Shown one piece after another: positions 50,801 through 53,800 of a stretch of 64,000 bases of DNA. The first letter of the stretch is position 1. Every line of letters starts with the position of its first letter. The DNA comes from a bacterium. Its GTDB lineage: Bacteria > Margulisbacteria > WOR-1 > O2-12-FULL-45-9 > XYB2-FULL-48-7. A program made the position numbers. The DNA lies in contig JBDRLW010000009.1 of assembly GCA_043812655.1 (NCBI GenBank), forward strand, positions 120 through 64,119. Direction: 5' to 3'.

Positions 50801-53800
50801 TTATAATATGCTTATTATGGAATCATCGGGATCCCGACATTCGACTTCGTCGAATCGTCGGGACTTCGGAACCCTTGTCTCTCGTTAATTTGCGCCCGGC
50901 GGGATTTGAACCCACAACCCTTAGCTTCGGAGGCTAATACTCTATCCAGTTGAGCTACGGGCGCAAATTAACTCGAAATTATTTTTTCAATAATTTTCCG
51001 GCTATGTTTTTCTTTAATAAAACGTTCTCTCTGGTAGGCCTGCTTAACATCAGCAAACTCCTCAACACGCTTTAATTCCCAAGGCTTGTAAGGAGCAGTT
51101 GAAGCAGAGATGCCTGAATTATGTTCGTTGAGTCTTCGCTGAACATCATTCGTAACCCCTACATAATATTGCCCATTAACGCAACTTTGCAAAATATACA
51201 AGAAATGCACTAATATTATTATAACCAAGTTTAAGGTCTTAAAAAAGCCTTAATATTAACTATCCAATTGCGTCCCGACATTCGACTCTGTCGAATCGTC
51301 GGGACCACGGGCCCAATTAATTAACAGTGGTTGTAAAACTTTTTCTTGCGATAACCTGGCCATCATCAGTTTTCACCTGGACTTCCCACTTGCCTGGATT
51401 ATAACCCGAAATGGTGACAAAACTCCAGGTATTGGCCGGTTGCTTAAGGAGCTCAAGAGGGATATCCGCGACAACTACCCCTGCCGGGTTAGTCCAAACA
51501 TGATGGATCGTTTGTTTATCGCCAGGATTATCAACAACGGTATAACAATAAACTTGTGTTTGCGCCACTGGATCAACTGAATCGATTTCATCCGCCGGCA
51601 AATAATTATCGGCTATCTGGCTGGTAAAAGAAATCTTAGAAACTGATAAGCTTGCATTAAGAGCATTCTCTGGTGGTCTTTCTTTCTGCTCTGGCAGGCT
51701 GGTTGTTAGCGTTAAGACTTCAGCCTCTCTGGTTGGCGCAATCGTCGTTGTTGCCTTAACTTCAACCTTACCGATCTGATCCTCAGCTAATCTGGAAAAA
51801 TAGGAAACAAAGCTGATCACCAGCCAAAGCGTTAAAATAACTAAAGTTATAACTATAATATACGGCCATTTGGGATCTTTTTTTTTAACGTGTCCAGCAA
51901 AAACTGCCATCTTAAACGACCTTATTCCTTAATTTGCCGATCTTTTCAATTTCTATTTCGACTAAGTCCCCTTTTTTCATCGGGCCGATACCGGCCGGCG
52001 TCCCGGTCAAGATCAGGTCGCCAGGCTCAAGGGTCATGATCTGGGAAATATAAGCCACGAGATAATTGACATTAAAGATCATATTGGCCGTAGTCGATGA
52101 TTGTTTAAGCTCCCCATTTAAAAATGATTCAACTTTCAAATTGTCCGGATCGATCCCAGATACTACTTCTGGGCCAACGGGACAAAAAGTATCGAACGAT
52201 TTGGCTCTCGTCCATTGGCCGTCAAGTTTTTGCAGGTCCCTCGCCGTCACATCATTGGCGCAAGTAAAGCCTAAAACATGTTTTGGCGCTTCAGCTTCAG
52301 AAACATCTTTAATTTTATCTTTGATCACAACCGCCAATTCCGCTTCATAGTGCAGTTCTTTGGTTTGGGAAGGATAAATAATCCCGTCGCCATTATAAAT
52401 CAACGACGACACGGCCTTTAAGAAGATCAGCGGCTCTTTTGGCCGCTCCATCTTCATCTCCGCCGCATGATCGGTATAATTTAATCCGACACAAACAATT
52501 TTTGTTGGTTTAATTTTCATTGTTATTATGGATAATTATAGCAGAACTGTGTCTAAAATTAACCCTTGGATTTCCCGGAGGAACGGAAATCAACAATAAT
52601 TTCAACCATTTTTTACACGTGCACAATAAAAGATATATTGAAATTTATAGCAATAATTGTCGATAGATACATGAAACAACTAACATATTCTTAGAGTCTA
52701 AAGGAGGAGATAATATGTACACAAGATCAACAAATAACGTATCTGGATCATACTTCGGCAATAATAATAATAATACAATTCAAGCCGGTCTACCTCTTTT
52801 TTATTTTTTGACATTAGCCATCACAGCGCTAGCAAATTTAGCCTGTGACGACCGTCATGTCCTGCCGGAGAATTTACCTGAAGGCAGTAGTGACAATGCG
52901 TCAGACGGCAATATTAACAATACCGGCTTAGATGGCGGGAACTCAAGAGATGCTTTTATTTCTGACGCACAGATTACGGATGCGCAGATTACTTCATCAG
53001 AAGCTGGCTGGCTAGATGCAAACAGGCTTGATGCCGGGGATAGACTTGACAGTTCAATCACTGACTCGCAAATAGTTGACGCCAACATTCCCAACGTTCC
53101 TGATAGTGGAGAACCAGATTCGAACATTATTTTAGATGCCGGAAAAGCTGATGTTGATCTTCAATTTGATGCTTCGTTACCTGATTCCAGCCAAGTAGAC
53201 GCCGGAATTTTTGTTTGTGATCCTGATGGAGACGGGATAATTACCACTCAATTCATTGACGTTAATTTACAAAAAGCAATTTTAGCGTCCTTGGGCAAAG
53301 AGCCAACAGACGAAATCACTATCCCCGACACAGAAAGCACCAGCTATTTAAGCATTGATAATGTTGGCGTCAATAATTTGACTGGGATTGAATGCTTCGC
53401 TAATTTAACGGTACTTAAAATAACTAATAATCCTCTTTCAAATATAGGTCCGCTGTCCAGCTTAACTAATTTGAGCGCTCTTAATCTTCATACAAACCAA
53501 ATATCCGACATTGTGCCGCTTGCAGGGCTCACCAATCTTAGAGGGCTTTACCTTAGTTACAATCAAGTGTCGGATATCCAACCACTTTCAGGCCTTGTTA
53601 ATTTAAGCGAACTCAGCCTTGCTAACAATCAAGTATCGGATATTTCTTCCCTTTCAACACTTACAAATTTACAGGGACTTTATTTGCCGAATAATCAAAT
53701 ATCAAACATCACACCGCTTTCTAGTTTGGTTAACCTGATTTATCTTAATCTTTACCAAAATCAGATATCTGATATTTCCTCCCTTTCAATGCTTACAGAT

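Follow-up and report, generated by a model that had tools for sequence, protein, structure and literature searches.

A tiny nuclease gene inside rebuilt tRNA-gene remains, here and in several phyla: a possible, little-known selfish cassette that would enter tRNA genes with a working replacement

Results

Organization of the GIY-YIG locus

The window (the whole stretch of 64,000 nucleotides that was analysed) carries a short GIY-YIG open reading frame directly ahead of a gene for tRNA-Arg(CCG). Positions are those of the window unless the contig is named; contig positions are obtained by adding 119. The genome-wide survey's note gave the interval 50890–51210 in window coordinates and the positions in its text in contig coordinates. 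The features of the locus are the following.

49884–50642, minus strand: MBL-fold hydrolase gene (PF12706), the downstream synteny anchor
50651–50667, minus strand: outermost 3′ tRNA remnant, AAATCCCGCCAGGCGCA (repeat family D3, third allele type)
50668–50727: second palindrome pair, 32 nt + 28 nt (contig 50787–50814 and 50815–50846)
50754–50788, minus strand: 3′ remnant of tRNA-Arg, positions 42–76, 100% identical to the intact copy (blastn)
50789–50863: back-to-back palindrome pair, 32 nt + 43 nt (contig 50908–50950 and 50951–50982)
50890–50965, minus strand: intact tRNA-Arg(CCG) (aragorn; Rfam tRNA, 68.5 bits)
50968–51210, minus strand: GIY-YIG ORF, 80 aa, GTG start at 51210, UPF0213/Slx1-like minimal nuclease (predicted)
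51215–51242, minus strand: putative promoter-like site TTAAGA-16-AATAAT, a match to consensus only (consensus scan)
51231–51272, minus strand: continuation of an older tRNA-Arg copy, CGCAATTGGATAG being positions 11–23 and the remainder decayed
51273–51304: 32-nt palindrome with the ends TCCCGAC...GTCGGGA (repeat family D2)
51305–51314, minus strand: 5′ remnant of the older tRNA-Arg(ccg), positions 1–10, GGGCCCGTGG (read from the sequence)
51317–52520, minus strand: DUF2914 and FAA-hydrolase genes, the upstream synteny anchor

The stop codon of the GIY ORF lies 2 nt ahead of the tRNA, which is the sole copy of tRNA-Arg(CCG) found in the assembly by aragorn. An alternative TTG start at 51228 would extend the protein to 86 aa. 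The promoter-like site is located directly upstream of the GIY start and is the sole candidate for driving both the GIY gene and the tRNA. Scanning of 50550–51450 detected no terminator-like site, and none lies between the two genes.

Upstream of the GIY gene, the palindrome at 51273–51304 splits the 5′ remnant of the older tRNA-Arg copy. This remnant is of an allele type unlike that of the intact copy, and at the diagnostic positions 2, 9 and 12 it agrees with the GGGCCCGTGGCGCAA-type tRNA-Arg of four relatives (L103, L105, L106 and L267). In L267, compared with the older copy at 51231–51272, the 5′ tRNA copy is readable up to position 41. Downstream of the intact tRNA, the palindrome pair at 50789–50863 adjoins a 3′ tRNA remnant, which is included in a 100-nt perfect direct repeat (50689–50788 and 50825–50924). 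The outermost remnant borders on the start of the MBL-fold gene, a place taken by the entire tRNA in relatives with an empty site. The order at the locus is a 5′ remnant of the other allele, a palindrome, the GIY gene, the intact tRNA, the palindrome pairs and two 3′ remnants. Between the syntenic flanks the insert consists only of the GIY ORF, tRNA and palindromes, without an integrase gene. In an Rfam search the palindromes had no match and only the tRNA was recovered. Public sequencing runs gave short, low-depth contigs at the locus, none of which spans the GIY core (50974–51187); one contig from an RNA library (X3) spans 50611–50780 with 1 difference and could stem from DNA carry-over.

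Protein family and selection

The window protein matched PF01541 (E 9e-18; 64.8 bits against a cut-off of 22.6), and no other Pfam domain was matched in its 80 residues. Seven matches to PF01541 were obtained in the genome, six of them stand-alone genes (all above the cut-off) and one within a 417-aa UvrC-like ORF. The six paralogues show no variation in the columns of the catalytic Tyr (GIY), Tyr-x-Gly, Arg, His and Glu (Y16, G18, R26, H30, E62); we take their catalytic roles to be those assigned after work on I-TevI and UvrC. The nearest solved structures were 1zg2 (5.3e-17), 1ywl (6.4e-14) and SLX1 (3e-6 to 2e-5), with I-TevI at just 0.0076. TIGR01453 reached 19.9 bits (cut-off 56.05) and covered residues 1–32 only. 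The descent from homing endonucleases that the survey's note had proposed is not borne out by these matches. Classic homing endonucleases of the I-TevI/Seg type join the domain to a DNA-binding module, whereas here the module is missing and the whole protein is the 80-aa nuclease domain. The window protein is domain-only and has no Asn after E62, as described for the minimal GIY-YIG domains of the UPF0213/Slx1-like branch in the accessible part of Dunin-Horkawicz et al. (2006, PMC1564403). Judged by sequence, the six stand-alone proteins belong to this same family of minimal domains lacking the C-terminal Asn and are not classic homing endonucleases.

The UPF0213 (YhbQ/YazA-like) family occurs very widely in bacteria; structures of its members have been solved, and to our knowledge no function is established. 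We know of no tRNA gene beside yhbQ or yazA, and in the literature found no link of UPF0213/Slx1 proteins to tRNA genes is reported. Slx1 acts together with Slx4 on branched DNA, whereas no partner is known for the GIY proteins described here.

No internal stop codon was present in any of the 82 GIY matches. The dN/dS values were 0.04–0.33 in the 12 of 21 pairs with measurable dS, while dS was saturated between genera in 9 of 21. The GIY genes are under purifying selection.

Linkage to tRNA genes

The genome contains 45 tRNAs and 1 tmRNA (aragorn), and all six stand-alone GIY genes adjoin a tRNA on the same strand:

C9 copy (the focal gene): 2 nt before Arg-ccg
C30 copy: 10-nt overlap with Tyr-gta
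C13 copy: 10 nt after Gln-ctg
C44 copy: 113 nt after Gln-ttg
C1 copy: 11 nt before Ser-tga, downstream of Ser-gct
C29 copy: 70 nt after Pro-ggg

The combined PF01541 and aragorn searches thus bear out the survey's statement that all six lie beside a same-strand tRNA. For a random 243-nt interval the probability of lying within 130 nt of a same-strand tRNA is 0.0035, which gives about 2e-15 for six of six; the survey's gene-based estimate of 2% per gene gives about 6e-11. The 30 other genomes of the order hold 76 copies; for 52 of them a same-strand tRNA lies no farther away than 152 nt, and for no copy was a tRNA present on the opposite strand within 210 nt. The earlier count of 20 tRNA-linked loci among 29 relatives was reproduced, 19 by aragorn and the last being L020, where the tRNA is cut by the contig start.

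Five genomes of other phyla contain 30 copies, 19 of which are likewise linked; linkage was also found at 16 of 29 Flavobacteriales-level loci and at 9 of 13 metagenome loci. Opposite-strand linkage never occurred in the order, other-phyla and Flavobacteriales-level sets. The four closest metagenome relatives (67–76% identity) all lie 4–8 nt upstream of tRNA-Arg(ccg). The cellular, genome-wide tRNA link claimed in the survey's note is thereby confirmed and is conserved across phyla. One GIY subclade follows the RNase P RNA gene, not a tRNA, in three genomes.

No paper on an association of GIY-YIG and tRNA genes in cells was found in a search outside of which subscription journals and supplements lay; the nearest precedent is phage SegB. 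SegB is a phage protein of the homing-endonuclease branch and is longer, about 220 aa with a DNA-binding part, whereas the genes described here are cellular and encode domain-only proteins of 80–100 aa of the UPF0213/Slx1 branch. According to the accessible text of PMC2330249 and PMC13096335, SegB cuts in tRNA gene regions and drives the segmental amplification of a tRNA gene, and an association with tRNAs has been shown statistically for 296 phage genomes. As here, the free-standing gene (T4/T6) lies among tRNA genes, in a phage tRNA cluster, and in the same texts it also promotes its own inheritance.

Broken tRNA copies and palindromes

The GIY genes have an intact tRNA on one side and, on the other, a broken version of it that is split by short palindromes with the ends YCCCG...CGGGR. 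Across the GIY gene from the intact tRNA, a fragment of the cognate tRNA was scored when it exceeded the best of 60 non-cognate controls. Such a fragment was present at 27 of 36 loci in the order with the GIY gene upstream of the tRNA, at 4 of 16 with the tRNA upstream, and at 3 of 8 and 4 of 11 loci in other phyla. At C13, C44 and, under the strict test, C29 of the genome itself the far-side fragment was absent. The nested design was found in 4 of 4 closest relatives of the window gene and was recognised by eye in Chryseobacterium, Maribacter, Moraniibacteriota and Babeliales-type records.

In each of three independent sets, the 300 nt around GIY genes show a roughly 10-fold enrichment of the palindromes. 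Of the 18 palindromes in the genome itself, 17 are no more than 310 nt away from a tRNA; stretches this close to a tRNA make up 1.35% of the genome. L056 hinted that the short palindrome of the pseudo-copies might be an anticodon arm, remodelled but with the anticodon retained. This reading was rejected, since L053 has the palindrome in both orientations and no anticodon is kept at other loci.

The scars in the tRNA genes suggest that the proteins act on these genes as DNA. Of the survey's proposal of an action on tRNA genes or their transcripts, it is the part concerning DNA that the scars favour. Beyond UPF0213, the nearest solved relatives are the SLX1 structure-specific DNA endonucleases, and a fusion to a DNA glycosylase exists. 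The nesting of intact and broken tRNAs, the palindromes at the joints, the RNase P RNA subclade and the protein-gene contexts of clade A (see below) are facts that the survey's note did not contain.

Empty sites, allele replacement and inheritance

At least 13 relatives carry tRNA-Arg(ccg) without a GIY gene, and five of these empty sites show the plain order promoter-tRNA-MBL. Within one genus, G027 has the cassette in tRNA-Tyr, whereas G028–G030 have a plain promoter-tRNA-T-run site. This is a clean case of presence and absence, of the kind the survey had not analysed, although it could be due to loss in the congeners. The older and the intact tRNA-Arg differ in allele type at the window locus and in L104. 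The flanking genes remain syntenic around insertions of 0.1–0.5 kb, which are without an integrase. Empty sites, presence/absence and allele replacement would be only indirect signs of a site-specific cleavage of the GIY-free allele and of preferential inheritance.

The GIY subclades track tRNA identity: the observed 28 label changes compare with a mean of 53.1 after shuffling, and none of 200 shuffles came down to 28. Support for the Tyr clade is 100/98. Clade A, which accounts for 31 of 81 rows, evolves slowly and is present almost throughout the order. At 9 loci it lies beside protein-coding genes with no tRNA, where it looks like a normal host gene. The copies of clade B are patchy, and most tRNA-Arg, -Tyr and -Leu loci of the relatives are without one. 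Recent transfer between genera was sought as near-identical DNA; none was found across genera, and there is therefore no sign of it. The tree is explained just as well by old vertical descent accompanied by numerous losses. A weak, pattern-limited scan found no relatives in viral contigs.

Arrangement for transcription

The gaps between GIY gene and tRNA are 0–20 nt, an anatomy fitting co-transcription, and in relatives the native tRNA promoter lies ahead of the whole GIY-tRNA unit. At the focal locus the 2-nt gap, the lack of a terminator-like site and the lone upstream promoter-like site would likewise be compatible with co-transcription of the two genes.

Discussion

The GIY ORF appears to encode an intact minimal nuclease, of predicted activity, that would be part of a compact cassette living inside the tRNA gene. 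Its adjacency to tRNA, the nesting, the empty sites, the presence/absence case, the match of clade to tRNA and the purifying selection are observed. From these we infer, with about even confidence, a homing-type cassette that resides in tRNA genes and is expressed from the tRNA promoter, with a presumed nuclease activity, target, mobility, role of the palindromes and co-transcription. The nuclease would cut the tRNA gene as DNA. Since it has no DNA-binding domain, the target would probably be recognised by structure (cloverleaf or cruciform DNA, palindromes) or by a short conserved tDNA motif. Recombinational repair would then copy in the cassette, and with it an intact version of the same tRNA that the cassette carries, leaving translation unharmed. 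The resident copy would be left in fragments split by the YCCCG...CGGGR palindromes. The cassette would be transcribed from the tRNA promoter, and ordinary tRNA end-processing would part the mRNA from the tRNA. As the holder of the only working copy of an essential tRNA, the cassette could not be removed by simple deletion.

A comparable outcome is known from atp6 of Allomyces, in fungal mitochondria, where a mobile endonuclease ORF brings a replacement end of its target gene and the displaced original piece stays beside it as a pseudo-fragment. That system differs in being organellar, in its protein-coding targets and other nuclease families, and in lacking palindromic joints. For SegB, the accessible text of PMC13096335 does not describe nesting in part-duplicated tRNA genes with palindromes.

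Several observations stand against the cassette. The intact tRNA inside it is identical to the presumed target, which poses a problem of self-cleavage. The palindromes and fragment scars at GIY-free tRNA loci, the palindromes of G002, the weak correlation between palindrome and GIY counts, the contexts of clade A, the loci C13, C44 and C29, the lack of near-identical copies across genera, the equal fit of vertical descent, the possible loss in the congeners of G027 and the lack of viral relatives in the pattern-limited scan also count against it. A wider proposal is tentative, and we would sooner doubt than hold it: the mini-nucleases and the YCCCG...CGGGR palindromes may constitute an unrecognised cross-phylum class of mobile elements that invade tRNA genes (occasionally RNase P RNA genes), replace the host's only copy and cripple the old one, so that the cell becomes dependent, finding the target by DNA structure (tDNA cloverleaf or cruciform) and not by a long sequence.

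The GIY gene could instead be a passenger. Integrase-borne elements, or palindromic elements of REP/MITE type that a Y1 transposase or some other enzyme mobilises, would then have hit tRNA genes repeatedly, and the GIY cargo would thrive there through expression from the tRNA promoter. We regard this as unlikely. GIY-free tRNA loci with palindrome and fragment scars do occur, both in the genome itself (C3, C8, C36) and in relatives (L097, L100, L102, L104), and at C8 a palindrome-bounded element holds an intact tRNA-Met and no GIY gene. G002 has 5 palindromes and no GIY match, and palindrome and GIY counts correlate only weakly (rho 0.33, p 0.07, among related genomes). REP/BIME elements with RAYT (Y1) transposases are short imperfect palindromes with conserved ends, often paired and in many copies, spread over intergenic regions. 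The palindromes here share the shortness, imperfection, conserved ends, frequent pairing and multiple copies, but in the genome itself lie almost entirely at tRNA genes, and up to 15 occur in genomes without a Y1 transposase match. Of the 31 genomes, 21 contain Y1 transposase genes (3 in this one), whereas PF01797 was unmatched in G020, G025, G015, G010, G023 and G008, which hold 4–15 palindromes (15, 12 and 14 in the first three); these genomes are 71–96% complete, and the absence is not certain. The correlation of palindrome count with Y1 count is a mere rho 0.10. Integrases leave partial tRNA copies, and the islands and prophages described in the accessible part of PMC9897764 share with the present loci the pairing of an intact tRNA at one end with a partial copy of it at the other; they encode an integrase and measure 9–121 kb, whereas the insertions here are of 0.1–0.5 kb, without integrase, often with 5′ fragments, palindrome-split and between syntenic neighbours. 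A passenger also leaves unexplained the single cargo family in at least 5 phyla and the match of subclade to tRNA identity.

A second alternative, which appears quite improbable, is that the protein benefits the host as a local keeper of tRNA genes: a Slx1-like, structure-specific nuclease produced at the tRNA locus would process stalled forks, R-loops or palindrome insertions there and promote gene conversion or segmental duplication in the manner of SegB, the fragments being by-products. The relationship to SLX1, the 100-nt perfect repeat at the focal locus, the tandem units in L085, L054, L066, L240, L241 and L248, the long-term purifying selection and the near-universal clade A would agree with this, as would the tRNA amplification by SegB documented in the available text of PMC13096335. 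A diffusible protein, however, need not be encoded beside each target, the old tRNA copies are destroyed rather than repaired, and the copies of clade B are dispensable, because most such loci in relatives are without one.

The COG4123 enzyme has since been recognised as a tRNA m6A37 methyltransferase. According to the accessible part of Dunin-Horkawicz et al. (2006, PMC1564403), the GIY-YIG family has fusions and operons with the COG4123 methyltransferase and a TrmH-like methyltransferase, from which a role in RNA metabolism was suggested. The proteins described here might accordingly act on RNA, in tRNA maturation, surveillance or turnover, and be kept in tRNA operons for co-regulation, as the strict same-strand linkage, the tiny gaps and the subclade that follows the RNase P RNA gene would suggest. 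This comes near the action on transcripts that the survey's note had offered as an option. We consider this very unlikely. No GIY-YIG RNase was found among the solved relatives, a single housekeeping copy would suffice, and the DNA scars, empty sites and allele replacement are left unexplained. In a limited, word-index search the longer relatives were fused to DNA glycosylase, AAA_18 and LOG domains and not to tRNA enzymes; no tRNA-methyltransferase fusion was among them, which says nothing for or against the fusions of PMC1564403.

Chance, gene-calling error or misassembly is scarcely credible: the draft genome has 46 contigs and repeats break the public contigs at the focal locus, but the linkage has a chance of about 2e-15, the pattern recurs at more than 100 loci in independent assemblies and phyla, and short contigs from two studies agree with parts of the scar region with 0–1 differences.

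The same-strand, cross-phylum link to tRNA and the rebuilt tRNA loci give UPF0213 a concrete, testable role, and genetic work is practicable in several of the carriers, those with Flavobacteriales-level genomes. Should the cassette reading be true, essential single-copy tRNA genes would be a battleground for tiny selfish elements, and the nuclease-driven turnover of tRNA genes seen with SegB would extend from phage to cellular genomes. Many annotated 'tRNA fragments' and mis-called tRNAs would also be explained. An example is L081, where a palindrome-bearing copy of tRNA-Asp was called as tRNA-Leu by aragorn.

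tRNA linkage of the minimal GIY-YIG genes

In the draft genome (1.62 Mb, 46 contigs; 45 tRNA genes and one tmRNA by aragorn), PF01541 matched seven loci: six stand-alone genes of 80-100 aa (GIY genes) and, at C40:11899-12123 (L007:514-1767), a domain within a 417-aa UvrC-like ORF. The latter is the sole other GIY-YIG domain in the genome, and its ORF is shorter than a typical UvrC. (C numbers denote contigs, of this genome unless a G number precedes them, G numbers compared genomes, L numbers fetched loci; the window spans positions 120-64119 of C9.) All six stand-alone genes adjoin a same-strand tRNA gene, with gaps of 0-113 nt. 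A random 243-nt interval is so placed with p = 0.0035, and the chance that all six are is ~2e-15.

The family is present in 30 of the 31 genomes of the order, and all 76 copies outside this genome were fetched and scanned for tRNA neighbours. A same-strand tRNA lies within 152 nt of 52 copies; an opposite-strand tRNA within 210 nt was found for none of the 76. Both linkage claims of the genome-wide survey's note, six of six here and 20 of 29 relatives' loci, were reproduced, the latter with the contig-cut tRNA of L020 included. The 24 copies without a called same-strand tRNA within 152 nt are partly explained locus by locus. At L020 the tRNA is truncated by the contig start. L019 and L021 follow tRNA-Asn(GTT) copies missed by aragorn because of the group I introns inside them. 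L063, L067 and L071 share a strand with the RNase P RNA gene, which lies upstream of them, L066 leads a tandem pair preceding a tRNA, and three copies stand in tandem where a contig begins (L054). Nine others are clade A genes (see below) beside protein-coding genes.

The introns split the tRNA-Asn(GTT) copies in the anticodon loop (L019:900-1500 in G007, L021:800-1400 in G015) and score 47.5 and 44.1 bits against RF00028, slightly below the 50-bit cut-off. The first L019 intron contains an HNH-type ORF, and at both loci a clade A GIY gene directly follows the tRNA. At L054:100-1250 (G011:C12), palindromes lie between the three tandem genes, of which the compared pair is 81% identical in amino acids.

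Beyond the order, a pattern scan of distant relatives gave tRNA linkage at 6/8 loci. The five genomes behind these loci (Chryseobacterium, Moraniibacteriota, Maribacter and 'Gammaproteobacteria' MAGs and a Babeliales genome) yielded 19 linked copies among 30 fetched, a set overlapping the eight, with 0 on the opposite strand. Sampling 61 genomes from the order to which the Chryseobacterium MAG belongs gave 49 with 1-11 copies, and 16/29 newly fetched best loci are linked. Among 16 metagenome loci 13 were scanned, nine of them linked within 210 nt.

Family identity and evolution

The descent from homing endonucleases proposed in the survey was not borne out. A six-protein profile ranked UPF0213 structures first (1zg2, 5e-17; 1ywl, 6e-14) and SLX1 next (3e-6), with I-TevI no better than 0.008; the intron-endonuclease model TIGR01453 scored far under its cut-off. 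The six proteins thus belong to the 'prokaryotic Slx1-like' group of minimal GIY-YIG proteins described by Dunin-Horkawicz et al. 2006 (PMC1564403). The available parts of that paper note methyltransferase fusions and suggest a link to RNA metabolism; tRNA-gene adjacency is not mentioned in them.

A tree of 81 proteins has two clades, A (31 rows) and B (50 rows). Clade A has short branches and a member in most genomes, located downstream of tRNA-Gln or tRNA-Asn or among protein genes. Subclades of B track tRNA identity (Tyr, Pro, Leu, Gln, Glu, Ser) across genera and both families. Changes of tRNA label number 28 against a shuffled mean of 53.1, on a tree with few columns and many unresolved forks. 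Purifying selection was found in all compared pairs, with dN/dS of 0.04-0.33 in the 12 of 21 pairs with measurable dS and saturated synonymous sites in the remaining 9; no recent inter-genus transfer, looked for as near-identical DNA, was seen. It follows that the tRNA associations are old and that the proteins are functional.

A further subclade (support 100/97; three genera, two families) lies 74-252 nt downstream of RNase P RNA:

L063:760-1440 (G018)
L067:77-933 (G028)
L071:687-1440 (G015)

The focal gene lies in a rebuilt tRNA-Arg gene

window 50968-51210 (-), GIY ORF, 80 codons, GTG start, ending two bases upstream of tRNA-Arg(CCG)
window 50890-50965 (-), tRNA-Arg(CCG)

The ORF matches PF01541 at E 9e-18 and retains the Tyr, Tyr-x-Gly, Arg, His and Glu columns that are invariant in all six paralogues. 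A neighbouring gene has WOR-1/Saganbacteria MAGs as its closest named relatives. The GIY gene is part of a compound insertion, within which a perfect 100-nt direct repeat is present (50689-50788 / 50825-50924).

Parts of the focal locus in transcription order
1, tRNA-Arg 5' end, ten bases, different allele type, GGGCCCGTGG
2, 32-nt palindrome
3, old tRNA-Arg copy, thirteen further bases, then decayed sequence
4, promoter-like site
5, GIY gene
6, intact tRNA
7, 27 nt
8, palindrome pair
9, tRNA 3' remnant, positions 42-76
10, the same 27 nt again
11, second palindrome pair
12, 17-nt tRNA 3' remnant, third allele type, touching the start of the MBL-fold hydrolase (MBL) gene

Empty sites and the nested design

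The GIY gene is absent at the orthologous tRNA-Arg(ccg) in at least 13 relatives, five of which have the plain order promoter, tRNA, MBL gene. The four closest relatives of the window's GIY protein (67-76% identity, metagenomes) all carry a cleaner nested design: the native promoter when it can be seen, the tRNA-Arg stretch 1-41, two paired palindromes at 41|42, the stretch from position 42 to ~54, the GIY gene and, 4-8 nt on, the intact tRNA. Flanking genes and tRNA allele type vary among the four.

Remnants of tRNA are also present within the loci at C30, C1 and C29. Across the GIY gene from the intact tRNA, a cognate tRNA fragment outscored every one of 60 non-cognate tRNAs in 27/36 and 4/16 cases in the order and in 3/8 and 4/11 in other phyla; in several misses the control is inflated because another annotated tRNA lies in the flank. 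In other phyla, broken copies are visible by eye, among them those in the Chryseobacterium MAG (tRNA-Ala), the Moraniibacteriota MAG (tRNA-Phe, 0-nt gap), Maribacter (tRNA-Phe) and G034 (tRNA-Glu). The 'tRNA-Leu' (cag) called by aragorn at L081:1401-1477 is a tRNA-Asp copy with a GC-rich palindrome replacing its anticodon arm, which illustrates how palindrome scars can inflate tRNA counts. At the tRNA-Tyr locus, G027 carries a full unit (promoter, 5' copy split by three palindromes, GIY gene, intact tRNA, 85-nt insert, old 3' end) where its congeners G028, G029 and G030 have a plain gene. The nested design appears to be general.

Palindromes at the joints

Short palindromes with YCCCG...CGGGR ends lie at joints between tRNA fragments and inserted DNA, in both orientations; AG|CT of the D-loop, 41|42 and the interior of the T-loop are frequent sites. 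A strict pattern has 18 matches in this genome, and 17 of them are no more than 310 nt from a tRNA, in a zone of 1.35% of the genome. In the order the strict pattern is found in 29/31 genomes and greatly exceeds a backward-read control. The density of YCCCG...CGGGR palindromes close to GIY genes (300 nt or less) is roughly ten times that elsewhere in the fetched loci in three sets (the order, the five other-phyla genomes and a Flavobacteriales-level set), with much weaker enrichment of a control pattern. They are also found at tRNA loci without a GIY gene, and in genome G002, which has no GIY match. Y1 transposases are present in 21/31 genomes and absent from several palindrome-rich ones.

Interpretation

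The best fit, to which we give roughly even chances, is a tRNA-gene-resident cassette of homing type. Such a cassette would account for linkage, nesting, allele replacement and empty sites, and also for tRNA-specific subclades, which would arise by integration guided by homology with the carried tRNA, and for intact reading frames. How the carried tRNA avoids being cut, and what makes the palindromes, fall outside this explanation. Ancient vertical inheritance with repeated losses may hold in place of mobility.

Three other readings each explain part of the data. All three are unlikely, with little between them: that the GIY gene is a passenger, that the nuclease is a host maintenance or amplification enzyme acting locally at tRNA genes, and that it has a role at the RNA level. 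The last is kept alive by the RNase P RNA-linked subclade and the methyltransferase fusions noted in PMC1564403; the scars in DNA and a fusion to a DNA glycosylase point to DNA as what the nuclease acts on.

A link between phage SegB and tRNA has already been published (PMC2330249, PMC13096335), and integrases are well known to leave partial tRNA copies (PMC9897764). In the literature outside subscription journals and supplements, nothing was found that associates cellular UPF0213 genes with tRNA genes, places GIY genes inside rebuilt tRNA genes or describes the YCCCG...CGGGR palindromes.

Scarred tRNA loci without a GIY gene

At C8:85716-86085 an old tRNA-Met is in four pieces (positions 1-25, 26-44, 44-58, 59-76) with palindromes between them; an intact tRNA-Met lies between the old pieces, inside an element with inverted ends TCCCGTTTCC...GGAAAACGGGA, with no GIY gene nearby. 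Partial copies and palindrome pairs are also seen at four other GIY-less loci:

C36:4252-4483, tRNA-Pro-cgg, with a perfect 60-nt copy of tRNA positions 17-76
C3:59209-59479, tRNA-Leu-cag
C3:84617-84975, tRNA-Val-gac
C30:106794-106978, tRNA-Glu-ttc

At L104:1250-1575 (G026), an old tRNA-Arg(ccg) copy (positions 1-41, identical to the window allele) is split at 41|42 by two paired palindromes, and next comes an intact tRNA-Arg(ccg) whose allele differs (87% identity). A foreign tRNA-Arg copy seems to have replaced the old one here, with no GIY gene in cis. Six tightly clustered same-strand tRNA genes at window 41612-42146 (Pro, Gly, Leu, Arg, Lys, His) have neither a GIY gene nor a palindrome of the strict type.

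A second palindromic family, with arms like CTTCGACTCGGTCGC...GAGCGAACGAGCG...GAGTCGAG, lies after tRNA-Gln and tRNA-Glu 3' ends and between tRNA-Gln and clade A GIY genes (C44:56420-56530, C30:106810-106900; L011, L012, L017, L020).
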